Positions 29,900 to 54,054 of a DNA stretch of 64,000 nt are shown piece after piece. The DNA comes from an uncultured Lachnobacterium sp. (GTDB lineage Bacteria > Bacillota > Clostridia > Lachnospirales > Lachnospiraceae): positions 16,671 through 80,670 of the forward strand of contig CAYROM010000001.1 in the NCBI GenBank assembly GCA_964425905.1, given 5' to 3'. Both the position numbers and the translations under genes were made by a program. Below the pieces are notes generated by a model, which was not told where the DNA came from, ran no database searches, and saw only the letters and a program-made list of their open reading frames with translations. The first letter of the stretch is position 1, and each line of letters begins with the position of its first letter.

Positions 29900-29906
29900 G
29901 GTTGCT

Positions 29907-31346: not shown

Positions 31347-31347
31347 T

Positions 31348-32666: not shown

Positions 32667-32696
32667 TTGCCGAAGCGTCGAAAGTTATGGTATAAT
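32667..32696 (+). promoter_or_regulatory. Possible internal promoter with extended -10
   Basis: TTGCCG at 32667-32672, 18-nt spacer, TGgTATAAT ending at 32696. Lies in the 200-bp gap upstream of the GtrB-like gene. Confidence 0.4.
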
Positions 32697-32745
32697 GTCG
32701 TCAGACATTATACCGCGCGAATGCGTTAGAAGAGAAGGAGATCCG

Positions 32746-33717: not shown

Positions 33718-33747
33718 TAAAAATATTATAACCGGAGGAATCAAAAT

Positions 33748-34929: not shown

Positions 34930-34966
34930 TAGTACATGGTTTTTCAGGATCAGAGCAAAAGAAAGG

Positions 34967-35965: not shown

Positions 35966-36647
35966 GCTAGCCTGGAATAGTTACAGCATGACGACAATAA
36001 ATATGATTCTTTATTGGCTGGCTATGGTGTGGCTGTTCCTATTTGAAAAGAAGAAAAAAGAGAATATATTGTTTTGGTATGCTGCTTTTATTCCGGTTAT
36101 GCTGCTTTTAATGCAAATATCATGCTTTTATCTTTTACCGGGACGTTCTCTCGGGAAAATGTTCCTGCTGTTGCCCGTGGGGATTCTTATGAGTTACACC
36201 GCTGTAAGAATTGCGGAAAGCGGCAGGGGAACAAAAAAGACATGGATAATTGTGCTCCTCTATGCTATAATGATTCAAGCCGGAATTACAATGAGATATA
36301 ACAGTTCTGTATTGCAGGGAGGGCTGAACTGCTATAAGATTTCTCCAAGCGTGGAATGGATGGCATATTACATCGGAGAAGATGAAAAGCTGAATGAGCC
36401 CTATGTGCTTGCTCCGAGTCAGATTGCCAGTCAGATTCAGGAATATGATGCGAGCATCAGGGTGGCATATGGGGAAGGGTATTCATATACGGGGAAAGAT
36501 CTTGACGAACTTTTGACGGAAATGGATTCCGTTGGATGCAACTGCCTGATCGTTAGATATGATGAGGAAAAAGAGGAATACATTAAGCATAAGGGTTACC
36601 GTTTGATTGTGATCCATGATAATTACGCAATATATGCGAGGAAATAG
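35940..36647 (+). CDS. Hypothetical membrane protein with soluble C-terminal domain (second half of pair A)
   Basis: N-terminal TMs and a C-terminal domain that aligns with the 51149 product. Overlaps 34967 by 26 nt in a different frame. Confidence 0.45.
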   Translation: MSALFESIRLAWNSYSMTTINMILYWLAMVWLFLFEKKKKENILFWYAAFIPVMLLLMQISCFYLLPGRSLGKMFLLLPVGILMSYTAVRIAESGRGTKKTWIIVLLYAIMIQAGITMRYNSSVLQGGLNCYKISPSVEWMAYYIGEDEKLNEPYVLAPSQIASQIQEYDASIRVAYGEGYSYTGKDLDELLTEMDSVGCNCLIVRYDEEKEEYIKHKGYRLIVIHDNYAIYARK

Positions 36648-36649
36648 AA

Positions 36650-38527: not shown

Positions 38528-38538
38528 AATTTGGAGAT

Positions 38539-39180
38539 ATGAAAATGGAATTTTCAACATCACAAAAAGTATATAGTGTGGTTAAGCGCTGTATGGATTT
38601 TTTGTTTGCACTGATTGGAGTGATTTTGTTAAGCTGGCTGCTGCTGATTTTATGTGTTGCCATTAAAATTGACAGCAGAGGGCCGGTTTTGTTTAAACAG
38701 AAGAGGGTTGGAATACATAAGACACATTTTTTGATATTAAAATTTCGCACCATGAAAATTGATACACCGAAGGATATGCCGACGCATATGCTGGAGAATC
38801 CGGATCAGTATATTACACGGGTGGGAAAGTTCCTTCGCAAGAGCAGTCTGGATGAATTGCCGCAGATTTTTAATATTCTTATGGGAAAGATGAGCATCGT
38901 GGGACCTCGGCCGGCATTGTGGAATCAATTTGATTTAATCGAGGAGCGGGATAAATACGGAGCAAATGACGTTACTCCCGGAATGACCGGGTGGGCTCAG
39001 GTAAACGGCCGCGATGAGTTGGAAATTCCGGTAAAGGCAAGGCTGGACGGCTATTATGTGCAGCATTATGGGTTTGGCATGGATGTAAAGTGCTTCTTTA
39101 AGACAATTGCCGCGGTTCTATCCCGTGATGGAATAGTGGAAGGCGGTACAGGCAATCGGAAGAATGAGGAACAGAAATGA
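38539..39180 (+). CDS. Small monotopic phosphoglycosyltransferase (PglC/WcaJ-C-terminal type sugar transferase)
   Basis: Single N-terminal TM, then [37 protein letters not shown]. Start ATG 38539 after GGAGA. Confidence 0.8.
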
Positions 39181-40088
39181 AGCGAATACTGATAACAGGA
39201 GCCAACAGTTATGTTGGCACCTCATTTGAAAAGTGGATGCAGCAGTATGCAGAGTATGAAGTTGATACAATTGATATGATTGATGGGGAGTGGCGTAATA
39301 AAAGTTTTTCAGGACATTATGCCATTTTTCACGTTGCGGGCTTGGCACATGCCGACATTACAAATGTCTCGGATGAGGTGAAGGAAAAATATTATGCCAT
39401 CAATTGTGATATGGCAATCGAGACTGCAAAAAAGGCAAAGGCGGACGGCGTGCAGCAGTTTATTTTTATGAGCAGCATGTCGGTTTACGGGGAGAGCGCC
39501 CCGGTGGGAAAGCAGCGGATTATTACCGCAGATACGCCAGCCTCTCCGGCGAATTTTTACGGGGACAGTAAGGTTCAGGCGGAAAAGGGTCTGCTGGAAT
39601 TAAATGATGTGTCGTTTAAGGTTGTCATTCTAAGGCCGCCGATGGTGTATGGAAAGGGGAGCAAAGGAAACTTTCCCACGCTGGAAAAGTTTGCAAAAAC
39701 ACTTCCGGTCTTTCCGTCAATAAAAAACGAGCGTTCTATGATCTTTGTCAATAATCTCTGCGAATTTGTGCATTTAGCGATTGAGCGCGAGATTAGCGGA
39801 ATTTTTTATCCACAGAATGCAGAATATGTAGTGACTGCTAAAATGGTAGAAAAAATAGCTGCTGAGCACCACAAACACATTTGGGTAACGCCTGTTTTTA
39901 ACTGGGCGATCTATTTGATCTCAAGAACACCGGGACAATACGGAAAATTGTGCAACAAAGCATTTGGGAGCTTGGTTTATGAAAAGGATTTGTCAGAGGG
40001 ACCGATCAAGGTTTCCGAGTACCAGACGGTAAGCTTTGAGGAATCTATAAGACTTACCAGAGCAGATGAAGAGGAAAGAGTCAAATGA
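39177..40088 (+). CDS. NAD-dependent epimerase/dehydratase family protein
   Basis: [14 protein letters not shown] Rossmann start. 303 aa SDR-extended. Confidence 0.65.
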   Translation: MKRILITGANSYVGTSFEKWMQQYAEYEVDTIDMIDGEWRNKSFSGHYAIFHVAGLAHADITNVSDEVKEKYYAINCDMAIETAKKAKADGVQQFIFMSSMSVYGESAPVGKQRIITADTPASPANFYGDSKVQAEKGLLELNDVSFKVVILRPPMVYGKGSKGNFPTLEKFAKTLPVFPSIKNERSMIFVNNLCEFVHLAIEREISGIFYPQNAEYVVTAKMVEKIAAEHHKHIWVTPVFNWAIYLISRTPGQYGKLCNKAFGSLVYEKDLSEGPIKVSEYQTVSFEESIRLTRADEEERVK

Positions 40089-40834
40089 GCGACAGGCGGG
40101 ATATTCTGGTCAGTATCGTTACGGTATGCTACAATAGTGAGGCGACCATTCGGGACACGCTGGAATCGGTGTTGAACCAGACATATACGAACATTGAATA
40201 TATCATTGTAGATGGGGGATCATCTGACGGCACGATGAGAATCGTCGAGGAGTATCGAAGGCGGTTTGAGCAGAGAGGCATGCGTTACGTTGTTTCGAGT
40301 GAGCCGGATCAGGGAATCTACGATGCCATGAATAAGGGAACAGGGAAAGCCACAGGAAAGCTGGTTGGTATTTTAAACAGCGATGACTGGTATGAACCGA
40401 TTGCGGTTGAGAGGGTTGCGGACACTTTTGAAAAGACGGGCTTTGACATGTTTTATGCGGATCTTCGACTGGTGAAAGAAAACGGTGAGATGATCAAGCA
40501 TTCCAGATACCGCAAATTTGCCACGAGCAGGGATTGGAATCATCCGACCACCTTTTTGAGAAGAGAGATATACGACCGGTTTCAGTATGCGTGTGAGACG
40601 ATACATGATGATTGGGATCTGGTTTTGAAGGTAAGAAACGCCGGATATAAAATTGTTGTCCTGAATGAGGTTCTCGCCAATTTCCGCGTAGGAGGGGAGA
40701 GCAATAACGGCGGATTAAAAAAGGCGATCAAGCGCTGCAAACAGCGATATGCAATCTATCGAAAAAACAACATGAGCCGATGGTATCTGGTTGAGTGTAT
40801 TGCAATCGAGGCAGCGAAGATGATACTTCGATAA
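40085..40834 (+). CDS. Family 2 glycosyltransferase
   Basis: VSIVTVCYNSEATI...YIIVDGGSSDGT. Confidence 0.75.
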   Translation: MSDRRDILVSIVTVCYNSEATIRDTLESVLNQTYTNIEYIIVDGGSSDGTMRIVEEYRRRFEQRGMRYVVSSEPDQGIYDAMNKGTGKATGKLVGILNSDDWYEPIAVERVADTFEKTGFDMFYADLRLVKENGEMIKHSRYRKFATSRDWNHPTTFLRREIYDRFQYACETIHDDWDLVLKVRNAGYKIVVLNEVLANFRVGGESNNGGLKKAIKRCKQRYAIYRKNNMSRWYLVECIAIEAAKMILR

Positions 40835-40857
40835 TGATTTTAATTAAAGGAACCGCT

Positions 40858-42087
40858 ATGAAAATTGTTGCAAATATCAAAAATCCCCTTTCAACACTGA
40901 CGTTTGAAAGGAAGACAATTTCATATAGTAATGTTCTGGATACGGTACTGGAACTTTTCCTCTATGTAAACTGCTTCTTTCCGTTCCTGAAATTTATATA
41001 TTTTGGATCGGATACGCAGCCCTATGCGATGCTGTTCGGGTTTTTGATCACCGTCATATATATATGGAGAGAGCGTACCATGCCGAAGGAAGCAGTACTG
41101 CTTCTGCTCTGTGGTATATTTATGGGAGCATTTGCGCTCACCGGATTAAATCAGATCAGCACATATATGGTATTCCGCAGTTATTCTGCATATGTAACTC
41201 TTATGTTTGTTCCAATTGGAACATTCCTTATAATGAAAAAAAGGGGTGGTCTAAATGAATTGTTTGCCAAGTGCTGTATTTGGTTTTGGTTTTTGGTTGG
41301 TTTTATACAAAAATGGGTTGATAGCGAATTTGGTTATGTGTTGACGGTGAGACATACGACTGGATTAACTCGTGGTGTAGTAAGTATGGCACCCGAGCCG
41401 TCTACGTACGGATATATGTGTATGTTTATGCTGCTAATTGCAATGGGATTTCAAAAAAAACGTTTGCTGTATGCGGCATTGTTGCTTACTCAGATATGTG
41501 TATTTGCAAATTCGTCAATAACACTTGTATACCTTGCGGTTTATGCTGGAACATTTGTATTTGGTGAAATAGTGCAAGCCAAAAAGTTTACTCTTTTGAA
41601 AATTGTTTTATTGGTCGGCTGTGTAGTTGCGGGGATTTACATTGTTCGAAATTACGTTCCACAGTCTAATCGCATCCGAATTCTTGTGGATTATGCATTT
41701 GATGATCCATCAAAATTCATTAATGATGGAAGTATTCAGATCCGAATCAATGAAATAGCTGAGACGTTTGGAGGATTTTGGTCCAATAATGGAATACCGC
41801 ATGGATTGAGCGCTTATAAGTATATGAGCGGTATAGGTTTGGTATTGCTCGAAGCTGGATGGTTTGGTGTTTTTATATTGGTTGTGGTTGCAGTAATTGT
41901 TTGGGGCGCATATCCAAGGAAAAATCGCCTGATGTATACGCTGGGGCTTATGCTTATGATGGTATCCGCAATTCCGTTTTCGGCGCCGCTATTTTGCTTT
42001 TATCTTGGAATGTGTTTGTACAATGGATGGGTAATGAAAAATAAAAAGTTGGAGGCGCAGCGAATTGAAGGTTCTTTGGATATGTAA
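40858..42087 (+). CDS. Wzy-like oligosaccharide repeat-unit polymerase / O-antigen-ligase-family membrane protein
   Basis: 10-12 TM segments with a large loop and no catalytic soluble domain. AT-rich. Confidence 0.5.
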   Translation: MKIVANIKNPLSTLTFERKTISYSNVLDTVLELFLYVNCFFPFLKFIYFGSDTQPYAMLFGFLITVIYIWRERTMPKEAVLLLLCGIFMGAFALTGLNQISTYMVFRSYSAYVTLMFVPIGTFLIMKKRGGLNELFAKCCIWFWFLVGFIQKWVDSEFGYVLTVRHTTGLTRGVVSMAPEPSTYGYMCMFMLLIAMGFQKKRLLYAALLLTQICVFANSSITLVYLAVYAGTFVFGEIVQAKKFTLLKIVLLVGCVVAGIYIVRNYVPQSNRIRILVDYAFDDPSKFINDGSIQIRINEIAETFGGFWSNNGIPHGLSAYKYMSGIGLVLLEAGWFGVFILVVVAVIVWGAYPRKNRLMYTLGLMLMMVSAIPFSAPLFCFYLGMCLYNGWVMKNKKLEAQRIEGSLDM

Positions 42088-43330
42088 TGTGCCCATACCG
42101 GAAGCAGGCGAGATTATGGGGGATGAAACCCAGGTTAAAGTCTCATGGCTGGTCGGAATTAGTGAAGCATTGCGAAAAAAAGTGGATTTATATATAGCCT
42201 ATACATCATCAAGGAGCAAAGAGATTGCGACAGGAAAGGGAAGGCAGGTTACTTTTGTTGCAATTCCCCGAAGGGTGTCCGATGAAAACAAATTTGATCC
42301 GTCGTTGGAGAGCCAGATAGAAAAGGTCTATGAGCTGGTAGAGCCGGATGTCATTCATGTTTTTGGAACGGAATTTCCGCATACGCTTAGCGTTGTGAAC
42401 GCCAGCGAAAAGACCGGGCGCATCGATGAAACCGTGATTTCCATTCAGGGTCTTGTGTCCATATACGCCAGACATTATACGGCATCGATTCCGGAGTGGG
42501 CGCAGCATTTTTATACCGTACGGGATGTCCTGCGGCGCAGCAATATCCGGAGAGCAAAAAAAGGATTTGCGGCACGAGGGGTATATGAAATGGAAGCGTT
42601 GAAAAAGGCGCACCATGTTATCGGCAGAACGGATTGGGACGAAGCGTGTGCGAAACTTTATAATCCGAATATTCGGTATCATTTCAACAATGAGATCTTA
42701 AGGGACAGCTTTTACCAAAATGAGTGGCAATATGAAAAATGTCAGCCCCATCGGATTTTTATGAGTCAGGGAGGATTTCCCTACAAGGGATTTCATTTCA
42801 TGGTGGAGGCGCTTTCGATATTGAAGAGGGCGTATCCGGATGTATCTCTTTACATTACGGAGCGGGATTTTGTTCATCCAAAGGGATGGAAAGAGAAGCT
42901 GCGCCTGAACAGCTATCAGTATTATGTACGTAAACTGATTCGGGAAAACCATCTGGAGGACAATATACATTTTCTTGGGATGCTGGATGAGCAGCAAATG
43001 TGTGAACAATATTTAAAGGCAAATGTGTTTGTGCTTCCGTCGGCAATCGAAAATTCGCCCAATTCTTTGGGGGAGGCGATGCTGCTTGGAACTCCGGTTG
43101 TGGTGTCCGACGTCGGCGGAGTAAAAAATATGATTACCCATGAAAAGGAGGGATATGTCTTTCAGCATGATGCTCCCTATATGATTGCATATTATGTGGA
43201 CAAGTATTTTAAGATGGGAATAGACGCAAAGGTATTATCGGATAGGGCACGTCTGCATGCAGCCGAAACCTTTGACATTGAGAAAAACATCAATGACCTT
43301 GCAGCTATTTATGAAGAGATAAGGAATTGA
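42065..43330 (+). CDS. Family 4 (GT-B) glycosyltransferase
   Basis: C-terminal GT4 motif VLPSAIENSPNSLGEAMLLGTPVVVSDVGG. Confidence 0.7.
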   Translation: MKVLWICNVPIPEAGEIMGDETQVKVSWLVGISEALRKKVDLYIAYTSSRSKEIATGKGRQVTFVAIPRRVSDENKFDPSLESQIEKVYELVEPDVIHVFGTEFPHTLSVVNASEKTGRIDETVISIQGLVSIYARHYTASIPEWAQHFYTVRDVLRRSNIRRAKKGFAARGVYEMEALKKAHHVIGRTDWDEACAKLYNPNIRYHFNNEILRDSFYQNEWQYEKCQPHRIFMSQGGFPYKGFHFMVEALSILKRAYPDVSLYITERDFVHPKGWKEKLRLNSYQYYVRKLIRENHLEDNIHFLGMLDEQQMCEQYLKANVFVLPSAIENSPNSLGEAMLLGTPVVVSDVGGVKNMITHEKEGYVFQHDAPYMIAYYVDKYFKMGIDAKVLSDRARLHAAETFDIEKNINDLAAIYEEIRN

Positions 43331-43333
43331 AAA

Positions 43334-44287
43334 ATGGAAATAAATAGTTTGGCCCCGGTGGTATTGTTTGTGTATAACCGTCCGGAGCATACAAAAAAAA
43401 CAATAGAGGCATTAAAACGCAATATCGGTGCAAAGCAGACAGAGCTTTATATATTTTGCGATCAGGCAAAAGACGAATCTGTGCGACAAAGAGTAGATCT
43501 TACCCGGCAGTATGTCCATACGATTACAGGTTTTAAGGAAATCCATATTGTGGAAAGAGACGAAAATTGGGGATTGGCGAGATCCATCATCTCCGGTACA
43601 ACGGAGGTTGTAAATACGCACGGCAGGATTATCGTATTGGAGGATGATCTAATTACCAGCCCGTTTTTTCTGCAGTATATGAATACCGCATTGGAAAAAT
43701 ATCAGGATGCAAAACAGGTTTTTTCGGTGACCGGATATTCCCATTTTCCAAACGGAAACGAAGCGCTTCCGCAAAGTTACTTTCTGAAGGTGTTTTCGTC
43801 GTGGAGCTGGGCGACATGGGCAGACCGCTGGGCGCTGTTTGATGAAAACGCGCTTGGGTGGGAGAAGACGAAGACGGATCCCGAATTGGCGAAGCAGTTT
43901 GATTATGAGGGGTGTTTTTACAATTGCCAGATGCTGAAAGCGCAGATGGAAGATCATACGATCAATTCATGGGCAATCCGGGCATATTGGACACAATTTA
44001 AGTATGACATGGTGACATTGTTTCCAAATCAGAGGCTGGTGGAGAACGAGGGCTTTGACGGAACGGGAGTTCATTGCAATGATAAGGCGGACTATCTGGA
44101 GGGAAAGCTTGCCGGCGGGCAGATAACGGAATTCCCGGAGAAAATAGAAGAAAAGGCGTTGAGCAGACAGGAGCTGATTCGCTTTATCGCCGCAAAAAAA
44201 CGCGCCTATAAGAGAACACGGATCAGGTATTATGCAGGGCATCCGGTACAGGCGTTGAAAAAAATAAAGGAAAAGATGGGCAGATAA
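43334..44287 (+). CDS. Putative GT-A fold glycosyltransferase (family not assigned)
   Basis: N-terminal VVLFVYNRPEHT and a VLEDD acidic motif. Confidence 0.45.
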   Translation: MEINSLAPVVLFVYNRPEHTKKTIEALKRNIGAKQTELYIFCDQAKDESVRQRVDLTRQYVHTITGFKEIHIVERDENWGLARSIISGTTEVVNTHGRIIVLEDDLITSPFFLQYMNTALEKYQDAKQVFSVTGYSHFPNGNEALPQSYFLKVFSSWSWATWADRWALFDENALGWEKTKTDPELAKQFDYEGCFYNCQMLKAQMEDHTINSWAIRAYWTQFKYDMVTLFPNQRLVENEGFDGTGVHCNDKADYLEGKLAGGQITEFPEKIEEKALSRQELIRFIAAKKRAYKRTRIRYYAGHPVQALKKIKEKMGR

Positions 44288-44289
44288 CG

Positions 44290-45471
44290 ATGGCGAAAAT
44301 ATGTATGCTGACCGCGCTGTTGTTTACTCCGGGAGGGGAGCAGCGTGTTGCAACGGTGATCGCAAATGAACTTTCAAAGAAAAATCAGCTTGTCATCTAT
44401 ACGATGGATGATGAGAAGAACCGTGCAAAAAGTGCATATAAGCTGGACGACAGTATCGAAATACGCTATACCCGGCAGCCGGTATATGGCTTTTTTAATC
44501 GGAGCCTCCGCAGAATGGTAAGGGATATCAATGAAAAGACCAATCTGCTTTATCGGAGAAAATCAGCGTATAAGCTTTTGGAATTTGGGTATTTCCAGAA
44601 GTCATGGCAGAGACAGATGCTGGATGAACTGACAAGGGAACCTTACGATGTGATTTTGGCGGTGTCCGGGGGAAATACGATTCAGTTGGGGCTTATTGCT
44701 GACCGGATCCCGTGCAGGACTGTGGGATGGGAACACAATGCATACGAGGCTTACTTTGGGATGCCGGGGTTATATTTCTGGCATCAGGATCAGCTGTTTG
44801 GCGAGGCAATCCGCAGGCTGGATTCCTGTGTTGTTTTGAATGAGAATATTCGAAAAAAATATGGGGAGGCATTTGGAAAAGACTGCGAGGTCATCTATAA
44901 TCCAAGAAGCTTTGTATCTGAGGAAAAAAGCAGCTTAAAAAATAAGATTTTTGCAGCATGCGGCAGGATCATCAAGCAAAAGGGATTTGATCTGCTCATA
45001 GACTCCTTTCGTCAGTTTGCTGAGTGGGAACAAGAGTGGAAGCTGGTCATTGTAGGAGATGGCGAAGACCGGGCAAAAATAGATGGAATGATCAAAAAAT
45101 ACGGTTTATGTGACCGCGTTACGGTCACAGGGTATACAAGTGAAGTAAAAAGATATCTAAGGGAGGCATCCGTATATTTGCTTTCCTCCCGATGGGAAGG
45201 ATTTCCGATGGTACTGACGGAAGCATTTGAGATGGGGCTTCCGACAGTTGCTTACAATATAAGCGCAGTAGAGCCGCTGCTTCAGGATGGGGAGCAGGGA
45301 TTGCTTGCAGAGGCATTTGATACCGGACAGTTTGCGAAGAAAATGCTCGCGATGACAGAACTATCTGAGGCGGAACGACGCAAGATGGCGGAGAAAGCGA
45401 TAGAGAAAGCGGAGTCCCTTTCTGTTGAAAAAATTATTGTAGAGTGGAAAGAACTGCTTTCGGCGGATTAA
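44290..45471 (+). CDS. Family 4 glycosyltransferase
   Basis: EGFPMVLTEAFEMGLPTVAYN GT4 motif. Confidence 0.7.
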   Translation: MAKICMLTALLFTPGGEQRVATVIANELSKKNQLVIYTMDDEKNRAKSAYKLDDSIEIRYTRQPVYGFFNRSLRRMVRDINEKTNLLYRRKSAYKLLEFGYFQKSWQRQMLDELTREPYDVILAVSGGNTIQLGLIADRIPCRTVGWEHNAYEAYFGMPGLYFWHQDQLFGEAIRRLDSCVVLNENIRKKYGEAFGKDCEVIYNPRSFVSEEKSSLKNKIFAACGRIIKQKGFDLLIDSFRQFAEWEQEWKLVIVGDGEDRAKIDGMIKKYGLCDRVTVTGYTSEVKRYLREASVYLLSSRWEGFPMVLTEAFEMGLPTVAYNISAVEPLLQDGEQGLLAEAFDTGQFAKKMLAMTELSEAERRKMAEKAIEKAESLSVEKIIVEWKELLSAD

Positions 45472-45482
45472 AGAGGTCACAT

Positions 45483-46325
45483 ATGAAGGAATTTATCAAA
45501 AATCATTTTCCTGGGATCGTGCAGTTTTTTAAGGATTTAAAAATGCTGGGCGAATATAAAAAGCGGAAAAGATATATTCAGGATTTTAATGAAAAAAACC
45601 ATGCGAGGTATGAGGAAAACCTCAGCAGATTCCATGATATCCATAAAGGAAAGCGGTGCTTTATCGTAGGGACAGGTCCGAGCTTACAGCTTTCCGATGT
45701 GGAAAGGCTAAAGGGAGAATACACTTTTGGCGTTAATTCCTGCCTTACTATGTATGATAAGACGGATTGGAGAGCCACATACTATGGAATCGTGGATTCC
45801 CATGCAGTAGAGATTATGGGCGAAAAGCTGAATTCCGACGAGATACCGGTCTTCTTTTATACGGACATTGATGCGGTCTATGATGGCAGGAATGGAGTTC
45901 CGTTTCCAAAGGATGATTCTGCCAATATGATGACGGATACCTTTTGGAGAAAGTTATTTCCTAAGAAATATCCGGAGACGGATTTCAGCCGGGATATAAC
46001 AAAAGTGGTGTATACAGGAAAATCCGTGGTATATGCAATGCTGCAGATTGCCGCATACATGGGTTTTTCCGAAATCTATCTTCTCGGAGTCGACTGTAAC
46101 TATGCACAGCCTAAAATGTATAGTGATAATGTCACTTATATTGACCATAAGACTAAATGGACGCAGGAGCGGCTGCTCAAAAACGGGAACCAAATGCTGC
46201 CGCAGTTTGAAATTGCCCGTAAGTATGCAGACCAGCATGGATTAAAGATTTATAATGCAACGAGGGGCGGTCAGCTAGAGAGCTTTGAACGTGTTGATTT
46301 AGATGATATATTGGCTAAAGGGTAA
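45483..46325 (+). CDS. DUF115 / MptE-like (Maf-type) protein, putative CMP-ulosonic-acid glycosyltransferase
   Basis: Signature CFIVGTGPSL followed later by IYLLGVDCNY. Start ATG 45483 after AAAGAGG. Confidence 0.6.
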   Translation: MKEFIKNHFPGIVQFFKDLKMLGEYKKRKRYIQDFNEKNHARYEENLSRFHDIHKGKRCFIVGTGPSLQLSDVERLKGEYTFGVNSCLTMYDKTDWRATYYGIVDSHAVEIMGEKLNSDEIPVFFYTDIDAVYDGRNGVPFPKDDSANMMTDTFWRKLFPKKYPETDFSRDITKVVYTGKSVVYAMLQIAAYMGFSEIYLLGVDCNYAQPKMYSDNVTYIDHKTKWTQERLLKNGNQMLPQFEIARKYADQHGLKIYNATRGGQLESFERVDLDDILAKG

Positions 46326-46352
46326 ATAGAAGGGAAAGGAAAGTGAGATACT

Positions 46353-47081
46353 ATGAAAATTATCGGAGTAATTCCGTCTCGTTATGAATCTTCCCGTTTT
46401 CCGGGGAAGCCATTAGCGGAAATTTGCGGAAAACCAATGATCTATTGGGTTTATAATCAGGTTATCAAAGTCAAGGAATTTGATGAAGTATACGTTGCCA
46501 CGGATGATAAGCGCATAGAGGACGCATGCAGACAGTATGGTATGAAGTGTATTATGACTGCTGATACTCATCAGACGGGTACAGATCGTCTGGGGGAAGT
46601 GGCGCAAAAGATTGAGGCGGATTTCTATGTCAATATTCAGGGGGATGAGCCGATGATCGAACCGGAAACGATCAAAAAAGTGGTCGACTACAAGGCGGAA
46701 CATCCCGAAACGGAGGTTATCAATACAATCACTCCGATCAAAGATGAATTTGAGATTACGCTTAACACCTGTGTAAAAGTTGTAACGAATGACGAGGATG
46801 ATGGAATCTATCTGTCCAGATCTCCGATTCCATATCCAAAGAAGGGGCAGGACATTACTTATTACAAGCATCTAGGCTTGTATGGCTTGAGCAGAAAGGC
46901 ATTGCTTTTCTTTGCAGAGGCTAAGCGAACTAAGCTTGAGCAAATCGAGGATATTGAGATGCTTCGGTTCATAGAAAACCATATTAACATTAAATTTGTA
47001 ACTGTAAATTCCTCTACCATTGCAGTAGACCGGAAGGAGGATATTGCAAGGGTTGAGGCTGCTATGAAGGAGCGGGAATGA
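46353..47081 (+). CDS. KdsB-like cytidylyltransferase (CMP-Kdo synthetase family, CTP_transf_3)
   Basis: IPSRYESSRFPGKPL..GKPMI, QGDEPMI, HLGLYG and IEMLRF parallel E. coli KdsB motifs. Confidence 0.7.
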   Translation: MKIIGVIPSRYESSRFPGKPLAEICGKPMIYWVYNQVIKVKEFDEVYVATDDKRIEDACRQYGMKCIMTADTHQTGTDRLGEVAQKIEADFYVNIQGDEPMIEPETIKKVVDYKAEHPETEVINTITPIKDEFEITLNTCVKVVTNDEDDGIYLSRSPIPYPKKGQDITYYKHLGLYGLSRKALLFFAEAKRTKLEQIEDIEMLRFIENHINIKFVTVNSSTIAVDRKEDIARVEAAMKERE

Positions 47082-48673
47082 AAACAATTCAAATCTTAGA
47101 CTGCACACTTCGCGATGGCGGGTGTGTCAATAATTTCAATTTTGGAAAAGAGTATATGGAGAAAATTCTTCATAGCGTGGAATCTGCCGGGATGGAAATG
47201 ATTGAATGCGGTTATATTGACGAGGCAAACGGTTCGGAGATGGAGAGGACGCAGTATTGCTGTGAGGAAGCAATCCGGGATCATTTTGTGATTCAAAAGA
47301 AACCGGGTGCGATGTATCTTGCCATGATAGATTATGGAAAATATGATGTAGCAAAGCTTCCGAAGAAAACAGATAAAGATATCGATGGAATCCGTCTGGC
47401 TTTTCACAAAAAAGACCGACAAAGTATCATTTCATGGGGAAAGACGATCATAGAAAAGGGATACAAGCTTTTTATCCAGCCGATGACAGTCATGCGCTAT
47501 TCTGATCAGGAATTACTGGAACTTATCCGGGAGGTGAATGAGGAACTGCCGGATGCATTTGCGTTCTATATTGTGGATAGCTTTGGCGAAATGAGGTCTA
47601 ATGATATGATCCGTATTATGAATCTGGTGGATCATAATCTCTTGCCGGGAATGCATCTGGGATTTCATTCCCATAACAATCTGCAACTGTCCTATTCCAA
47701 TGCAATTTCCTTTATTGATTTCCATACGGAGAGGGAGCTTATTGTGGATTCCTCGATCATGGGAATGGGAAAGGGAGCCGGAAACTTAAATACGGAGCTG
47801 TTTGCGGAACACTTAAATCTGTATTTTGGAAAACAATATCAAATACAGCCGCTTCTGGAAGTAATCGATACGGTTATCAATCAGCTTCACTCGGAATTTT
47901 ACTGGGGTTATTCGGTGGAATATTATTTGTCCTCCATCAATCATTGTACGCCGAGTTATGCAGGGCATTTTTTTAAGAAACATATGCTCTCAATCGATCA
48001 GGTTTCGGATCTTCTTAAAATGCTGCCGGAGGAAAAGAAGATATCCTTTGATAAGAATTTTGCGGATCAATTGTATTTACAATATAACGAAATGAAACAG
48101 CAGGACGACGGCGCTGTGTTGGAGGAATTGAGAAAGAAATTCTCAGGAAAGAAAGCGCTGCTTTTAGCGCCGGGCAAGCATTTGACAGATGCAGATGCGA
48201 CGATTCGTGCCATGCTGGAAGATCCGGATGTGGTATCGGTAGCTCTTAATTATGATAAAGTATACATGACAGACTATGTCCTTACCACAAAACAGGAGCG
48301 GTATGAAAAAGCAGTTGGCAGGGGCAGGAATGTAATTGCGACATCAAACGTCAGCATACAAGGGGAACCGCAGTCGGAAGGGCAGGTTTTAGTCATCAAC
48401 TATAAAAATTGGATTAAGACAGAGGATGGGGTGAATGACTCAGCCTTAGTCGTTGTGTTCAATCTGTTAAAGGCAATCGGTACGAAGGAAGTATATCTTG
48501 CCGGATTTGACGGATTTTCCGCCAGTATTAATGAGAATTATGCGGATAGGAATCTGCGGCGCCCTGTCACGGATGAACAGGCAAGAGAGAGAAATGAATT
48601 TTTCCGTGATTATATAGATAAAGCAGGCGATTTGATGGAAATTCATTTTCTGACGAAATCAAGATATCAGTAA
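47078..48673 (+). CDS. Fusion protein: N-terminal HMGL-like (DRE-TIM metallolyase, pyruvate-aldolase-type) domain plus C-terminal DUF115/Maf-like domain
   Basis: ILDCTLRDGG at residues 6-15 is the HMGL-like signature. The C-terminal ~190 aa repeat the DUF115 pattern (KKALLLAPGKHL ... VYLAGFDGFS, compare CFIVGTGPSL ... IYLLGVDCNY in the 45483 product). Overlaps the kdsB-like stop. Confidence 0.55.
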   Translation: MKTIQILDCTLRDGGCVNNFNFGKEYMEKILHSVESAGMEMIECGYIDEANGSEMERTQYCCEEAIRDHFVIQKKPGAMYLAMIDYGKYDVAKLPKKTDKDIDGIRLAFHKKDRQSIISWGKTIIEKGYKLFIQPMTVMRYSDQELLELIREVNEELPDAFAFYIVDSFGEMRSNDMIRIMNLVDHNLLPGMHLGFHSHNNLQLSYSNAISFIDFHTERELIVDSSIMGMGKGAGNLNTELFAEHLNLYFGKQYQIQPLLEVIDTVINQLHSEFYWGYSVEYYLSSINHCTPSYAGHFFKKHMLSIDQVSDLLKMLPEEKKISFDKNFADQLYLQYNEMKQQDDGAVLEELRKKFSGKKALLLAPGKHLTDADATIRAMLEDPDVVSVALNYDKVYMTDYVLTTKQERYEKAVGRGRNVIATSNVSIQGEPQSEGQVLVINYKNWIKTEDGVNDSALVVVFNLLKAIGTKEVYLAGFDGFSASINENYADRNLRRPVTDEQARERNEFFRDYIDKAGDLMEIHFLTKSRYQ

Positions 48674-48683
48674 AGGAGTTTTT

Positions 48684-50078
48684 ATGAAGAGACAAGACGG
48701 TTATTGTGTAGAAACCAGAGAAATCAACATAAAAAGAATGCTGTGGTGGATATTGCGAAAATGGCGGGTCGGAGCTGCTTTTGCGATAGTCTGTGCGGTG
48801 ATATTTGGCGCTTGGCAATATAAGAGAGAGGAGCAGATTCACGAGGAAAATTATCAGGAGGCGATTGCTGCGCAAAATCAGGCTGCAGAGAGCGTAGAAT
48901 CTCTGACAGATCAACTTTCTGATGCAGAGCTTGGCGGAGTCAATATGGCCGTTTATTATCAAACGAAACTGATTAGTGCTAGCAATTATCTTGGCAATTC
49001 TGTATTAATGCAACTAAATCCTTATGCAGAAAATGTAATGAATATTTATGCGGAATGTGTGTCGGAAGAGGAAGCTATTAATGTCATGAATTATCTGTCA
49101 AGCGAGGACTTTCTTAATGAACTCGTGAGTGTTGTTGGATGGTATAGAGAAAAAAGCTATCTGAAAGAATTGATTGAGCCGGAAATGGCGGGGAATAATG
49201 TAAAGATATCAGTTATTGCAGATAGCGTAAGCAATGCAGAGTTGTATGCGAACAATATCGTTGCGTTGCTCAATAGCTATCATTCGGAAGAGGTGATATA
49301 TGTATACTTAGAGGCCGAGACGGTGGTGGATATGTCCGCGGTTGAAACTTTTAATAGTGTCTATGACAGTTATATTACTAATAATTCCTTTTTTTCAAAT
49401 TATTATAATACTCTTAATGCAAAACAGCTTCAGCTGTATAATTTGTTGATATCGGGCCAATCGTCTGTTGAAGAAGATAGCATAATAATTACGCTTGAAG
49501 AGACAAAGATTAACTTTAAAATGATTGTTATGGGCTTTTTAGCGGGAATTATTGCAGCCGCAGTAATCCTGGGTGTTGTATATACCTTTAGCGCAAGGAT
49601 TCATGGGGAAGAGGAAGCGAAATATTTATTTGGTGAACCTGTCATCGGCAATGTGAATGCAGGCGGGCTTGAAAGAAAAAGGCTCTTTGGTTTTGTGGAC
49701 AGGGCAGTCTATAAGCTGGGAAACCGTACCGCAAAACGTATTGACTATGACGGACAGCTTCAAATGTGCATTGCTAATATTTCGCTTATGTGTCAGGCAA
49801 AGGACGTTAAGGAAATATATTTATCAGGAAGTGAAATCGGAAGGCTTCCGGAGAAGCTTTTGACAGACATAAAGGAAGGGCTTTCGGCAGAGAACATCGG
49901 TGTTTTTTCGGGTGGAAGTATTGTATATGATGCGGATTCTCTAAAGGAATCGGCGGAGAAGAACAATCTTATTTTTATTGAGATCAGCGAGAAATCAGCA
50001 TGTAAAGAAATTGCTAAAGAGTTGAATCTGTGTCTGCAGAATCAGCTTAATTGTCTGGGGATTATTATGGTGGAATAG
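48684..50078 (+). CDS. Wzz/CapA-like polysaccharide co-polymerase (chain-length determinant) protein
   Basis: TM1 near the N-terminus (VGAAFAIVCAVIFGAW), a ~270-aa extracytoplasmic domain, TM2 (MIVMGFLAGIIAAAVILGVVY), and a ~150-aa cytoplasmic tail with no Walker motifs. Confidence 0.5.
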   Translation: MKRQDGYCVETREINIKRMLWWILRKWRVGAAFAIVCAVIFGAWQYKREEQIHEENYQEAIAAQNQAAESVESLTDQLSDAELGGVNMAVYYQTKLISASNYLGNSVLMQLNPYAENVMNIYAECVSEEEAINVMNYLSSEDFLNELVSVVGWYREKSYLKELIEPEMAGNNVKISVIADSVSNAELYANNIVALLNSYHSEEVIYVYLEAETVVDMSAVETFNSVYDSYITNNSFFSNYYNTLNAKQLQLYNLLISGQSSVEEDSIIITLEETKINFKMIVMGFLAGIIAAAVILGVVYTFSARIHGEEEAKYLFGEPVIGNVNAGGLERKRLFGFVDRAVYKLGNRTAKRIDYDGQLQMCIANISLMCQAKDVKEIYLSGSEIGRLPEKLLTDIKEGLSAENIGVFSGGSIVYDADSLKESAEKNNLIFIEISEKSACKEIAKELNLCLQNQLNCLGIIMVE

Positions 50079-50080
50079 GA

Positions 50081-51148
50081 ATGGGGATTTTAATGCTTCT
50101 GCTTCTGCTTGGGGTAATACCGATCCCTGTGGGAGCATTGTTTACACGACCGATGATCAAAAAACGAAAAATGAGCCTGACATTTGTCTATATCATGGGC
50201 ATTATGGTATTGGTGGCGCTGAGTGAAATACTCTCAGTACCCATGACTTTGATCAGAGGATCATTTTCATCCTTCGTATGGGTATATAACGGCGTTACGC
50301 TTGCGTTCATTATTCTGGCTATCGTTTTTTGTCGAAACTATATTGCGGACCTTGTGAAAACTGCGGCGGAAAGAATCCGCCATGCAGATAGGGCATGGAT
50401 ACTGGTATTATTGGCAATCTATGTGCCGGTTATCCTATTGGCATTTGTGACGCCGTATATTTACGGAGATGACAGAACCTACCTTTCTATGGTGAATGAT
50501 ATTGTGCAGTCAAACACATTATATCAGATTGATGCGGATACCGGGGAAGAGGTTGTGTTTGTATTGGCAAAATATGCGCTGTCCTCCTATTGGACATGGA
50601 TTGCATATCTTGTAAAAATGTCCGGGATCCATTCCTTGATTCTCTGCAAAACGGTGCTCATGTTTATATTAGTTCCCATGAGTTACGCGATTCAGGGACT
50701 GCTGGCGGGGCATTGGTTCCGAAACGATGAGCGGAAAATGCGCATATATATGCTCCTTGTCGTATTGGCAAGCATTTTTGGCGGTTTTTCGGCGTATACG
50801 GTTACCTATCGTCTATATACATGGGTGTGGCAGAGCAAAGCCTTTCTTGCGATCATCGTGCTGCCGTTTCTGCTATATTATTGCTGTATGGTATATGAGA
50901 AAGACACCGCGGGATGGGAATATGTACTGTTAATGCTGTTGATCATTGCAGCCTGCTCTACCACACTAACCGGAACTGGTCTTGCGGTTGCGATGGCTTG
51001 TCTATTATCCGCAATCTATGCTTTTATCCAAAGGAAAATAGGGATGGTTATTAAAACCGTATGTTCCTGTCTGCCGGCATTTGTATTGATGGTCATTTAT
51101 ATGCGTTACTATTATTTTTTGGCATTCTTCGGGTTACTGGGGGAATAG
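50081..51148 (+). CDS. Hypothetical polytopic membrane protein (first half of paralogous pair B)
   Basis: ~10 TM segments, similar to the 34967 product (for example VPMSYAIQGLLAGHWFRNDER versus VPIFLIPLYGAVGWMVSEYFFKDR). Ends at TAG directly abutting the next ATG. Confidence 0.45.
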   Translation: MGILMLLLLLGVIPIPVGALFTRPMIKKRKMSLTFVYIMGIMVLVALSEILSVPMTLIRGSFSSFVWVYNGVTLAFIILAIVFCRNYIADLVKTAAERIRHADRAWILVLLAIYVPVILLAFVTPYIYGDDRTYLSMVNDIVQSNTLYQIDADTGEEVVFVLAKYALSSYWTWIAYLVKMSGIHSLILCKTVLMFILVPMSYAIQGLLAGHWFRNDERKMRIYMLLVVLASIFGGFSAYTVTYRLYTWVWQSKAFLAIIVLPFLLYYCCMVYEKDTAGWEYVLLMLLIIAACSTTLTGTGLAVAMACLLSAIYAFIQRKIGMVIKTVCSCLPAFVLMVIYMRYYYFLAFFGLLGE

Positions 51149-51874
51149 ATGAGTATAGTAAATTTTTTAAACCAGCTTTTTTGGACGGATAGCGCTTATA
51201 TGATACTCATGGCAATATCTTTGATCTGGATTCTTACAAGAAAGAATGAGGATGTAAGGGCAAAATGCATGGCTGTCTACTCGGCGCTTGCCTTTTTGTT
51301 TGTCATTTGCAATCCGATCATTGCGCCGTTGGGACTGTATTTTTTTGGAGAGGATAAGTATGCGTATCTGCGCATATTTTATTTAGTCCCGCTGATGTCG
51401 ATCATTGCTTATAGCGGAACTTCTTTCTATACGGAATATGTAAAAAGAACGGATCGGACAGCTAAGAAGGCGGTATATGCGGCTGTTATTGTGATTACGC
51501 TCATATTATGCGGATCGCTCTACGATTCAACTATGTACAGAAAGGCAGAAAATATATATAAGATCGATCAGGACGCCTTGGAAATCAGCGAGATCATCAA
51601 TGAGGACAGCGGAAATGAAAGAGTTTATGTCCTGCTGCCGGGGGCGGACGACATCGTTTATGGTGTCAGGCAGTATACGGAAAGGATTATCGTAGCCGGC
51701 AATTCGGACGAGGTGACAGACCGAGAGTCGCTGGCCGGCGCGCAGGAATCCAAAGCGTTTGAATATCTGGTGATAGATAAGGAAAAAGAGGAACTGTTGG
51801 CGGCTGATATGGTAGATTTTTACAGGCTTGATGAAACGGAACATTATGTCATATACAAAAAGGTGGACGGCTGA
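51149..51874 (+). CDS. Hypothetical membrane protein with soluble C-terminal domain (second half of pair B)
   Basis: C-terminal domain aligns with the 35940 product (YVL.P....Y....I.VAG/YG....LVI/LIV.D.EKEE...HYVIY/NYAIY). Confidence 0.45.
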   Translation: MSIVNFLNQLFWTDSAYMILMAISLIWILTRKNEDVRAKCMAVYSALAFLFVICNPIIAPLGLYFFGEDKYAYLRIFYLVPLMSIIAYSGTSFYTEYVKRTDRTAKKAVYAAVIVITLILCGSLYDSTMYRKAENIYKIDQDALEISEIINEDSGNERVYVLLPGADDIVYGVRQYTERIIVAGNSDEVTDRESLAGAQESKAFEYLVIDKEKEELLAADMVDFYRLDETEHYVIYKKVDG

Positions 51875-51875
51875 T

Positions 51876-53045
51876 TTGGGTAAGAACATTTTATATATAG
51901 CAAATTATTATCTAAAAGATGTAATAGACCAGCGGAATGCAAAGCCGTTCGTCTCCCAAGCAGGGCAGAATAAAAGCGCCTATATCATCGATATGCTGGA
52001 GACCGGAGGAAATCAGGTTACCGTTTGGTCTAACGCATGGACAGGCAGCAGGAGTCTCCGATTCTATAAAGGGTTTCAATCAAAGCAGAATCCGGACGTG
52101 TACTATTCGGATATCTTCGGAGCGCCTTTTTTCAATGTGTATTTCTGCAAAAGGAGCTGTAAGAAATTTATACAGAAGCGGCAGAAGGAGCAGCCGATCG
52201 ACATGATCGTGTTTTACAACATGCGGTTGGAAAATGCTCCGGCAGCCCTGTATGCGAAAAAAAAATACGGAATACCGATCATATTGCAGTATGAGGACGG
52301 GCTGACGCAGGATGCAACCGTAAAAGGCATAAAAAAATGGCTTTACGCAAGGATGGAGAAAAAGACGCTTCCGAATTTGGACGGAGCCTTTCTGGTCAAC
52401 TCTAAGATCCGGGTTCCCTGCCCGGCGGTAACGATCCGGGGGGCGGTCCATAAGAACAATACAGCAAAAGTCGAAAGAAGGGATGATCAAAGAAATCCGA
52501 TCCCGAAGCTGCTTTTTGCAAGCACCCTTGACCGCCAGCGGGGAATTGAGGTATTGTTGAAGGCGCTGGAATACACAAAATCCAAGTTTGTTCTTTGGAT
52601 CACCGGTAAGGGTGAGGCTGTGGAACAGATTAAGGCAAACGCGGACGAGCGGGTAGAATATCTGGGATTTTTGGATTATGAAGCGTATCAGGATACCCTG
52701 CGCAATGCGGATATCTGTATCAACGCGCAGTTAGCGCACCATGAATTCGGCAATTTTTCATTTCCTTCGAAAATCTGCGAATATCTTTCCGCAAAGAAGC
52801 TGGTCGTATCCTCGGACGTGGCGGATGCAAAGGAGGCTCTTTCCGACGTTGCATTTATCTATGGGGATGACGATCCGGCGAAATTGGCAGATGCTATGGA
52901 GCGGGCAATCTCCGTTTGGCAGGATGCGGAAAAATACCGGCAATATCTTTTCGGGATGGATCGATTTATAGAAGAAAACTCGATGGAAAAGGTTGCGGAG
53001 AACGTAAACCGGCTTTTGGATAGAATAGAAGGTGGATGGAAATAA
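51876..53045 (+). CDS. Family 4 glycosyltransferase
   Basis: GT4 C-terminal motif FPSKICEYLSAKKLVVSS. Proposed TTG start at 51876 after AGGTGGA, right after the upstream stop. Alternative starts are ATG 51846 and 51828. Confidence 0.55.
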   Translation: MGKNILYIANYYLKDVIDQRNAKPFVSQAGQNKSAYIIDMLETGGNQVTVWSNAWTGSRSLRFYKGFQSKQNPDVYYSDIFGAPFFNVYFCKRSCKKFIQKRQKEQPIDMIVFYNMRLENAPAALYAKKKYGIPIILQYEDGLTQDATVKGIKKWLYARMEKKTLPNLDGAFLVNSKIRVPCPAVTIRGAVHKNNTAKVERRDDQRNPIPKLLFASTLDRQRGIEVLLKALEYTKSKFVLWITGKGEAVEQIKANADERVEYLGFLDYEAYQDTLRNADICINAQLAHHEFGNFSFPSKICEYLSAKKLVVSSDVADAKEALSDVAFIYGDDDPAKLADAMERAISVWQDAEKYRQYLFGMDRFIEENSMEKVAENVNRLLDRIEGGWK

Positions 53046-53046
53046 T

Positions 53047-54054
53047 ATGAAAAACTATTTGATAACATGGTTCTATTCGGAACAGGCAAACGATGAGAGC
53101 TATTATCCGTCCGTGGGAGGGAGCAGCAGCAGCGCGGAATTTCAGTATGTGTACTGGAGATGCATCTATGTATTTTATCGTTTTGCATTGATTGCGAACC
53201 GGGATGTGGTAACGGACTTTATGTTTTTTACAAACGTGGAGAATCTTCCTACGGTGGACGGGATAAATTTTAAGAACTTCTTTGAGGAGAACCATATCAG
53301 GGTCGTACATCAGGAACTGACAAGAAAGACGCCGAAGGATTGGTACGGGGCATGGAGAAATCAATTCTATTTGTTTGACATTCTTGATCATTTCAAAGAA
53401 GCGGATGGCAATATCCTGATTTTGGATTCAGACTGTGTGATCAACGGGAATCTGCAGGGCCTGTATGACGAGATCAATGAGAAGGGAATTCTGACGCTTC
53501 CGATCGACTACTCCGAAAACCGGGAGATCAACGGCTGCTCCATTGCGCAGATGAGGGATATCTACCGACAGATCTTTTGCACGCAAAAAGCGGACGGGCT
53601 TTTATATATGGGAGGGGAGTTTGTCGCTCTTCGCGGAGACAGGATCGCTTCCCTTATGGAAGTATTCGAGACGATCTGGGCGAAGAATTATGAATTATAT
53701 GAGCAAAAAGTCCGGAAATTAAATGAGGAGGCCCATGTGCTGTCCCTGTGTTACTATTATCTTGACGGACAGAATGAAGCGGGAAGAAAATATATTCGGC
53801 GGATCTGGAACTCGCTAAACTGCAATCAGGTGAAGACGAGCGATCTTGCGCTTCCGATCTGGCATCTGCCGGCGGAGAAGAAATTTGGGTTTAAAGAGCT
53901 TTTCCGCAAACTAAAGACAAAGAAGGAAATTTCGAAAGAAGAACTGTACCGTCTGAGTAATCGGGCAATGAAGCTGTCCTGCTCAAAGACGTGGAGAAAG
54001 ATTTGTTGGTACTTACGGTACGGGAAACAGAAAATATGCAAAATTCGAGGATGA
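53047..54054 (+). CDS. Hypothetical protein, possibly a glycosyltransferase (DxD-like ILILDSDCV)
   Basis: 335-aa ORF with RBS GGTGGATGG. Confidence 0.35.
   Translation: MKNYLITWFYSEQANDESYYPSVGGSSSSAEFQYVYWRCIYVFYRFALIANRDVVTDFMFFTNVENLPTVDGINFKNFFEENHIRVVHQELTRKTPKDWYGAWRNQFYLFDILDHFKEADGNILILDSDCVINGNLQGLYDEINEKGILTLPIDYSENREINGCSIAQMRDIYRQIFCTQKADGLLYMGGEFVALRGDRIASLMEVFETIWAKNYELYEQKVRKLNEEAHVLSLCYYYLDGQNEAGRKYIRRIWNSLNCNQVKTSDLALPIWHLPAEKKFGFKELFRKLKTKKEISKEELYRLSNRAMKLSCSKTWRKICWYLRYGKQKICKIRG

Follow-up and report, generated by a model that had tools for sequence, protein, structure and literature searches.

Which enzyme makes the sugar that a bacterial glycan locus appears equipped to activate and transfer, when none of the familiar synthases is encoded nearby? 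This question is raised by a cassette of three co-oriented plus-strand genes (45483-48673) in a 64,000-nucleotide stretch of contig CAYROM010000001.1 from an uncultured Lachnobacterium sp.; the whole stretch is hereafter the window, and coordinates refer to it unless another locus is named. Gene 1 encodes a DUF115/MptE-like protein, gene 2 a KdsB-class cytidylyltransferase, and gene 3 a fusion of an HMGL-like/DRE-TIM barrel with a helical linker and a C-terminal Rossmann-type domain (Table 1). Ulosonic acids, including 3-deoxy-D-manno-oct-2-ulosonic acid (Kdo), sialic, pseudaminic and legionaminic acids and 2-keto-3-deoxynononic acid (Kdn), are surface sugars key to host recognition, phage attachment and immune evasion. 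To our knowledge, every established route to them uses a phosphoenolpyruvate (PEP)-dependent synthase of the KdsA or NeuB type, and genome surveys rely on those markers. No gene for NeuB, DAHP_synth_1 (KdsA), SIS (KdsD) or KdsC was detected at 14.8-61.6 kb of the window by Pfam scans and, for KdsC, by tblastn; over that range, the absence of kdsA, kdsC, kdsD and neuB reported by a first-pass annotation of this DNA is borne out.

We propose, with moderate confidence, that the cassette is a cytidine monophosphate (CMP)-ulosonic-acid pathway that supplies and installs one acidic sugar, Kdo-like in this clade, and that the fusion takes the slot of KdsA or NeuB. The fusion is cast as the synthase because the gene set of the pathway lacks one and no other protein is a candidate for that step. 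From this gene context, we infer that gene 3 has a pyruvate-dependent ulosonate synthase activity.

Families and folds of the three proteins

Residues 4-247 of gene 3 match PF00682 HMGL-like with 53 bits (cut-off 29), and the nearest NCBIfam models are two 4-hydroxy-2-oxovalerate aldolases (8e-23 and 1e-21, both below cut-off). Sequence matches in the PDB include 3dxi (3.9e-32) and the aldolase DmpG (1nvm, 4e-18). Foldseek with the AlphaFold model likewise ranks 3dxi and DmpG-type aldolases first, the alignments to the latter spanning ~340-355 columns with the linker region included, and Claisen-type synthases and carboxyltransferases of the same superfamily rank behind DmpG-type aldolases by both sequence and fold. 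The N-terminal domain belongs to the HMGL/DRE-TIM family, as first annotated, and within it is closest to DmpG-type pyruvate aldolases. Its fold is a TIM barrel, confirmed by the model and Foldseek, that carries a D-x-T-L-R-D motif together with H-x-H and Asn metal ligands. Residues D8, R12, D13, H197, H199, N200, N201 and N236 are at least 95% conserved among members of 32-54% identity. The Arg-Asp and His-x-His align to R17/D18 and H200/H202 of DmpG, in a mapping that, like that onto Cst-II below, rests partly on residue roles taken from the literature. The barrel is probably a DRE-TIM enzyme that binds pyruvate on a metal.

DmpG/BphI/MhpE aldolases (class II, DRE-TIM) are the best characterised relatives of gene 3. 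The metal and enolate residues and the helical “communication” domain are kept, and each of the two barrels has a partner of Rossmann type. Gene 3 is not a DmpG ortholog, however: it falls below the equivalog cut-offs, has His21 replaced, lies in a context of glycan biosynthesis rather than aromatic catabolism, and carries a covalently fused DUF115-like domain instead of the DmpF dehydrogenase partner. Pfam scans found no gene for a DmpF-type acylating aldehyde dehydrogenase in the locus. In the AlphaFold model the linker forms helices over residues 257-337, of which W276, G277, Y278, P292 and Y294 are invariant, and the full-length protein is predicted confidently as a unit (pLDDT 87, pTM 0.79). 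The closest solved structure, 3dxi, is the N-terminal domain of the putative aldolase BVU_2661 of Bacteroides vulgatus, a structural genomics entry with no function assigned. It too is part of a larger protein, according to its PDB title, but shares only ~24-30% identity with gene 3 and has a Tyr at the position of Cys16.

Gene 2 matches PF02348 CTP_transf_3 at 3.2e-53 and passes four KdsB models of NCBIfam: PRK13368 with 299 bits (cut-off 255), PRK05450.1-5 with 284.6 (193), PRK05450.1-3 with 243.7 (234) and TIGR00466 kdsB with 168.5 (155.2). Against the PseF model it reaches 41 bits, where the cut-off is 205.7. The KdsB-like assignment made from the letters alone is thereby backed by curated cut-offs, and gene 2 does not cluster with nucleotidyltransferases for non-ulosonic substrates.

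Gene 1 matches PF01973 MptE-like with 51.4 bits (gathering cut-off 34.6), in agreement with the precomputed annotation of an independent assembly, and weakly matches the Kdo-III transferase WaaZ (3.7e-4). A profile of its family finds the Campylobacter GT42 sialyltransferases Cst-II (7.7e-8) and Cst-I (6e-5), the Maf flagellin glycosyltransferase (7.6e-4) and a lipooligosaccharide sialyltransferase (1.6e-3), and the archaeal pyrophosphokinase MptE at only 0.19. The alignment to Cst-II covers the GNGPSL loop, the Asn that ends strand 2 and the GIDFY strand, which are the CMP-binding motifs. Within the DUF115 fold, the family profile places gene 1 with the CMP-sugar transferases, since the match to Cst-II is far stronger than that to MptE; the weak WaaZ match points in the same direction. 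Neither the gene 1 family nor that of the gene 3 C-terminal domain (C-domain) has an invariant His after the GxD strand, the position of the catalytic base His188 in Cst-II. The GT42 sialyltransferases and Maf/DUF115 transferases have their fold in common with gene 1 and with the C-domain of gene 3, but differ in the acceptor, predicted here to be a polysaccharide repeat unit rather than lipooligosaccharide or flagellin.

That C-domain had been annotated as a second DUF115 domain, which needs qualification. PF01973 gave no match to the isolated C-terminal 211 or 241 residues even at E up to 10, and the single Pfam match is CST-I at E 0.02; one distant fusion member has a sub-threshold PF01973 match (0.0058) in this domain. 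A shallow profile of 20 close sequences reached 14% probability against the gene 1 family in hhalign and found nothing in a PDB profile search, whereas a diverse profile of 121 members aligned with that family at 83.5% probability (E 8.3e-6, 126 columns), pairing LLLAPGKHL with CFIVGTGPSL and VYLAGFDG with IYLLGVDC. The C-domain is a divergent DUF115-fold domain that is remotely homologous to, and folded like, bona fide DUF115 proteins. The earlier assignment therefore does not hold at the Pfam threshold, but it stands as remote homology, with the same named motifs aligned.

Conserved throughout the family are G366, N391, S423-N424, D454, G476-x-D478-G479 and N506. Mapped through the gene 1 alignment, these residues would sit on the elements that bear the CMP-sugar-binding motifs of Cst-II, given the residue roles described for Cst-II. 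The domain is minimal, at ~195 residues against 280 in gene 1, and lacks the conserved C-terminal NATRGG region of the latter. In an exhaustive search of 1.84 billion representative proteins, it occurs almost only fused behind an HMGL domain (556 clusters). A free-standing form could not be established, the short proteins checked being fragments that still bear the end of the HMGL domain. The same search also returned a 394-residue protein (P0239) in which a partial class-V aminotransferase domain, in place of the HMGL barrel, is joined to the C-domain; this may represent another architecture, or else a metagenomic reading frame that is chimeric or truncated.

Gene neighbourhoods, the proposed pathway and its alternatives

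Neighbourhoods were compared in 77 loci of different species, taken from the best 80 of at least 555 and leaning to Firmicutes, with open reading frames (ORFs) called heuristically and the five genes on each side of the fusion clustered. A CTP_transf_3 gene lies at position -1 in 68 of the 77; these counts come from BLAST clustering, not from an over-expanded iterated hidden Markov model (HMM) whose 159 matches took in other nucleotidyltransferases. A ~160-residue phosphatase of the KdsC/YrbI family (TIGR01670 161 bits, cut-off 107) occupies +1 in 29 loci, and the family is present in 41 according to an HMM scan. A separate gene 1-like DUF115 protein is found in 39 loci, usually two to four genes upstream of the fusion, and an alpha-2,8-polysialyltransferase-like (A-2_8-polyST) protein in 18; one or the other occurs in 54, and both together almost never. 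Within five genes of the fusion, every other family is limited to about six loci at most, which means that a synthase of NeuB or KdsA type does not accompany the module, and no canonical synthase was seen in the Pfam-annotated Collinsella, Prevotella and teichoic-acid-like metagenomic loci.

Two further fusions tie steps of the pathway together. In a Paludibacteraceae metagenome-assembled genome (MAG; L070, 625-2886), one 753-residue ORF, as read from its sequence alone, joins a cytidylyltransferase of a ~214-residue type to the HMGL barrel and C-domain. In two other loci (L015, 2756-3673; L024, 11799-12680), the KdsC-like phosphatase carries a C-terminal YhcH/YjgK/YiaL domain (DUF386; YhcH/NanQ; Pfam 1e-24 and 2e-19), a family linked to sialic acid handling. 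One locus (L088, 11656-13929, and the same in L089) encodes, adjoining the fusion, a 757-residue protein with a TagF-like Glyphos_transf and an MptE-like/DUF115 domain, besides an ABC-2 exporter, a cytidylyltransferase and a haloacid dehalogenase (HAD) phosphatase; from its gene content it looks like a locus for a teichoic- or teichulosonic-acid type of polymer.

We propose that the barrel would bind pyruvate on its Asp/His/His/Asn metal site and join the pyruvate enolate to the aldehyde group of an aldose, free or phosphorylated, yielding a 2-keto-3-deoxy acid in place of PEP-dependent KdsA or NeuB. A phosphorylated intermediate, where formed, would be dephosphorylated by a KdsC-type phosphatase, which about half of the related loci encode and the window does not. 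The KdsB-class gene 2 would then convert the acid and cytidine triphosphate into the CMP-sugar, and gene 1, of the GT42/Maf-like DUF115 kind, would move the CMP-bound sugar onto the growing repeat unit.

The identity of the acid may vary. A KdsB-type partner accompanies the fusion in ~13 related loci, and most relatives are paired with a different CTP_transf_3 subfamily of ~214 residues that is non-KdsB and weakly PseF-similar. The Kdo-like sugar of the first-pass annotation is in keeping with the partner in the window; since most relatives use the non-KdsB subfamily, the substrate of gene 2 could be a Kdo-like acid instead of Kdo itself. In the most distant clade (37-41% identity; L077, L079, L080 and L086), a PfkB kinase holds the +1 slot that the phosphatase has in other clades. 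It is closest to kinases of 2-keto-3-deoxygluconate (KDG) and 2-keto-3-deoxygalactonate (KDGal), and matches the kinase part of a model for KHG/KDPG aldolase-kinase fusions with 543 bits. Because of the two cytidylyltransferase subfamilies and this KDG-kinase-like gene, the product may differ between clades and need not be Kdo, with both chain length and identity variable. A 340-residue gene downstream of the fusion in the distant loci, considered as a hidden NeuB, is this KDG-type PfkB kinase.

The first-pass annotation had described a make-activate-transfer module in which pyruvate is joined to a free aldose, and gene 1 and the C-domain are both glycosyltransferases that add the CMP-activated sugar. 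Comparative context supports this at the level of a module, and none of the outcomes that the annotation had named as refuting it was observed, but in its exact form we consider the scheme unlikely. The clade of the window (the window and L007-L012) has no KdsC-type phosphatase, in line with a free, unphosphorylated intermediate; against it, a phosphatase of this family accompanies the fusion in more than half of the loci, which indicates a phosphorylated intermediate in many clades and leaves the free one unsupported. The genome of the window could encode such a phosphatase elsewhere.

The second transferase can be argued from the G-loop, Asn and GxD motifs that the C-domain keeps in common with gene 1 and Cst-II, and from loci in which no transferase is recognised. 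Of 23 loci with neither a DUF115 nor a polyST-like gene, about ten are truncated upstream and ~13 are flank-complete. Several of the loci not truncated hold an unannotated gene at the same -2 position; compared with polyST, a first group is a probable remote relative (88.9%), a second is borderline (58%) and a third shows similarity around an HP motif only. These proteins (L034, L042, L053 and L059, ~470 residues; L037, L063 and L068, 430-586; L077, L079 and L072, 434-462) each bear a K/D-H-P motif and may be new families of CMP-sugar transferases. A single separate transferase, by contrast, is the rule in most complete loci, the more so when remote polyST relatives are counted, and a fusion to the synthase in virtually every member would be odd for a step that follows CMP activation. 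In addition, the C-domain is ~90 residues shorter than gene 1 and has no NATRGG region.

A biosynthetic or regulatory role with nucleotide binding is more likely for the fused C-domain than that of simply a second transferase, because virtually every member has it fused and a separate transferase is retained in most loci; the earlier view that both DUF115 proteins transfer the sugar is not sustained. Most likely, the domain serves the synthase step rather than the main glycosyl transfer. Three candidate roles carry similar weight: a sensor of the CMP-sugar end product with control over the first committed step, a hydrolase of nucleotide sugars that supplies the aldolase, and a kinase-type domain. 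Docking of the cytidylyltransferase is a further candidate. The hydrolase option follows the logic of PseG and NeuC, which are glycosyltransferase folds with water as the acceptor.

The kinase option is suggested by MptE being the best structural match and by the phosphatase that follows in many loci. Worked out along the logic of mammalian sialic acid synthesis, which runs from kinase to synthase, phosphatase and CMP-synthetase, the MptE-like C-domain would phosphorylate the aldose, the barrel would condense the aldose phosphate with pyruvate, and a HAD phosphatase encoded elsewhere would free the acid for gene 2. We hold this route to be distinctly improbable. The known adenosine triphosphate-using members of the MptE/DUF115 fold are pyrophosphokinases, not sugar kinases; in alignments, the conserved C-domain motifs fall on the CMP-sugar-binding ones of gene 1 and Cst-II; no phosphatase is encoded in the window; and the separate PfkB kinase of one clade would duplicate the kinase domain.

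Least probable is that the HMGL-like domain is a Claisen-type acyl-coenzyme A synthase (isopropylmalate, citramalate or homocitrate synthase-like) or a carboxyltransferase that makes a small organic-acid substituent of the glycan, with the cytidylyltransferase acting elsewhere: such enzymes do share the Pfam family and fold, homocitrate and isopropylmalate synthases are weakly matched (1e-5 to 4e-10) and NCBI once named a member “pyruvate carboxyltransferase”, but similarity to the DmpG type is the stronger throughout (1e-17 to 1e-23, compared with 1e-5 to 1e-10) and extends to the helical domain, and the linked CTP_transf_3, KdsC phosphatase, sialic-acid-related DUF386 and sialyltransferase-like genes would be left with no role. 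A phosphonate-type pathway (FrbC-like HMGL plus cytidylyltransferase), the sole literature context found to pair the two domain names, was rejected, as neither a PEP mutase nor a phosphonopyruvate decarboxylase occurs in the window or among recurrent neighbours, and the cytidylyltransferase is KdsB-class, not LicC/PntC-class.

Several points weigh against the proposed pathway itself. Gene 3 scores far below the cut-offs of the 4-hydroxy-2-oxovalerate aldolase models (77.4 bits vs 286 and 81 vs 229 for TIGR03217 and NF006049). The catalytic His21 of DmpG (RDGSH) is not conserved, its place being taken by Cys16 (RDGGC) in gene 3 and Tyr in 3dxi, which means that the aldol mechanism of DmpG cannot be carried over as it stands. 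Aldol addition of pyruvate has a weaker thermodynamic drive than the reactions of PEP-dependent synthases. The partnering of the fusion with two cytidylyltransferase subfamilies, and the replacement of the phosphatase by a KDG-kinase-like gene in the distant clade, also fit the scheme less readily. The search for a canonical synthase covered the window and the contig flanks, and such a gene could lie elsewhere in the genome. In the full-text literature, apart from subscription-only sources, no functional paper was found on any member of the fusion family or on the cassette.

The hosting polysaccharide locus

Three plus-strand ORFs lie where the first-pass annotation had placed them, every motif string that it quoted is present in their translations, and Pfam scans of the surrounding ORFs confirm that they sit inside a polysaccharide locus. 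The ATG of gene 1 is preceded by a ribosome-binding site (RBS; AAAGAGG), and the ORF could be extended back to a GTG at 45444; an independent assembly of the same sequence gives identical calls for all three genes, the start of gene 1 included. The gene 2 stop and the gene 3 start share an ATGA overlap, and an RBS (GAAGGAG) stands before gene 3, so that the two genes are probably translationally coupled.

Table 1. Coordinates of the cassette, the domains of gene 3 and the surrounding features in the 64,000-nucleotide window
Feature	Coordinates	Strand	Predicted role or basis
Gene 1, DUF115/MptE-like, 280 aa	45483..46325	+	predicted CMP-ulosonic-acid glycosyltransferase (GT42/Maf-like)
Gene 2, KdsB-class CMP-ulosonic-acid synthetase (cytidylyltransferase), 242 aa	46353..47081	+	PF02348 and NCBIfam KdsB models
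Gene 3, whole fusion, 531 aa	47078..48673	+	HMGL-like barrel, linker and C-domain
Gene 3 residues 1-250, HMGL-like/DRE-TIM metallolyase barrel	47078..47827	+	predicted pyruvate-dependent ulosonate synthase (aldolase)
Gene 3 residues 251-337, helical linker, equivalent of the DmpG “communication” domain	47828..48088	+	AlphaFold model, Foldseek
Gene 3 residues 338-531 and stop, divergent DUF115/GT42-like Rossmann-type domain	48089..48673	+	putative nucleotide or nucleotide-sugar binding
Polysaccharide biosynthesis locus hosting the cassette	28907..54054	+	Pfam scans, NCBIfam scan of unannotated ORFs
DUF6077 membrane proteins in the locus	34967-35965 and 50051-51148		
Five ORFs without significant Pfam/NCBIfam match	35940-36647, 40795-42087, 48684-50078, 51149-51874, 53032-54054		
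CdaA-YbbR-GlmM operon	24880-28611		
Second glycan locus, ABC-transporter-dependent	54062-63572		

The hosting locus encodes GT2 and GT4 glycosyltransferases, two Bac_transf priming transferases, a UDP-glucose dehydrogenase and a CapD-like dehydratase, besides two DUF6077 membrane proteins and several ORFs without a family match. Among the five unmatched ORFs, the sole match is to SURF1, below cut-off, in the one beginning at 48684. The 464-residue ORF directly after gene 3 is kept at +1 in the closest relatives (cluster 14). The DUF6077 proteins and the unmatched ORFs could include a polymerase, a chain-length regulator or a flippase.

Just upstream of the locus lies an operon for CdaA (diadenylate cyclase), YbbR and GlmM (phosphoglucosamine mutase), an arrangement typical of Firmicutes. 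Directly after the locus follows a second glycan locus, with ABC2_membrane and ABC_tran proteins, several GT2 and one GT4 glycosyltransferase, a hexapeptide acyltransferase and a DegT aminotransferase. The G+C content of this second locus is markedly lower (0.32-0.39, against 0.41-0.52 upstream), which suggests that it was acquired separately.

Known pathways, distribution and significance

The cassette resembles the canonical CMP-Kdo pathway (KdsD, KdsA, KdsC, KdsB) in its KdsB-class gene and, in about half of the related loci, a KdsC-family phosphatase, and the kpsF/kpsU (KpsF/KpsU) copies of capsule loci in keeping sugar-supply genes inside a polysaccharide locus. It differs in that KdsA, KdsD and KdsC are all missing from the searched part of the window, that KdsA and KdsD are not recurrent in related loci, and that an unrelated DRE-TIM fold, for which pyruvate and not PEP is the expected substrate, takes the place of the synthase; moreover, most members of the fusion family work with a non-KdsB cytidylyltransferase subfamily. 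With the NeuB/PseI/LegI plus NeuA pathways and the vertebrate GNE-NANS-NANP-CMAS route, the cassette would have in common the logic of condensing a three-carbon unit with an aldose or aldose phosphate, dephosphorylating if needed, activating with CMP and transferring by a sialyltransferase-like enzyme, to which the polyST-like transferases of related loci correspond. The synthase, however, is not homologous to NeuB, and neither a NeuC/PseG/LegG hydrolase nor amino-sugar tailoring genes are consistently linked to the module. By analogy, the cassette would act like the Kdo and sialic acid supply modules of capsule loci (KpsF/KpsU; NeuB/NeuA plus sialyltransferase); it would be a pathway of a familiar type whose key step falls to an uncharacterised enzyme that is not homologous to the usual one.

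The fusion is encoded in at least 555 species-representative genomes, and a word-indexed protein search returned at least about 8,000 matches, of which the best 120 are all full-length (~528 residues). Hosts among the matches listed are Lachnospiraceae, Oscillospiraceae, Erysipelotrichaceae, Bacillus, Collinsella, Prevotella, other Bacteroidales, Spirochaetaceae and a Riflebacteria MAG; the closest species-level relatives among them are Agathobacter and Roseburia MAGs, with 71-81% identity in gene 3, which places the source of the window in the Lachnospiraceae, a Gram-positive lineage. NCBI names the fusion generically as “aldolase catalytic domain-containing protein”. The HMGL plus DUF115 architecture, regarded as undescribed in the first-pass annotation, is indeed uncharacterised, but it is not rare, and a crystal structure of an N-terminal domain exists in 3dxi. 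The remark that a Kdo-type sugar would be unusual in a Gram-positive glycan was overstated, a canonical kdsA/B/C/D-kpsC island having been reported in Bacillus coahuilensis (PMC4744853).

Tentatively, the fusion may found a third class of ulosonic-acid synthase that does without PEP, namely a class II pyruvate aldolase equipped with its own nucleotide-binding domain for control or feeding. Such an enzyme would have displaced KdsA and NeuB in hundreds of species, among them many gut commensals of high abundance (Agathobacter, Roseburia, Blautia, Coprococcus, Prevotella, Collinsella), and may make an uncatalogued sugar acid of capsule or wall. Three small soluble proteins suffice for a direct test of the hypothesis. 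If the fusion is a pyruvate-dependent synthase, it would add a new type of reaction to the DRE-TIM superfamily and provide a new biocatalyst for keto-deoxy sugar acids from cheap pyruvate. Surveys that used NeuB and KdsA as markers would then have missed the pathway in at least 555 species, many of them dominant gut bacteria of humans and animals, and the capsules of the species that carry it would bear acidic sugars that nobody has looked for.

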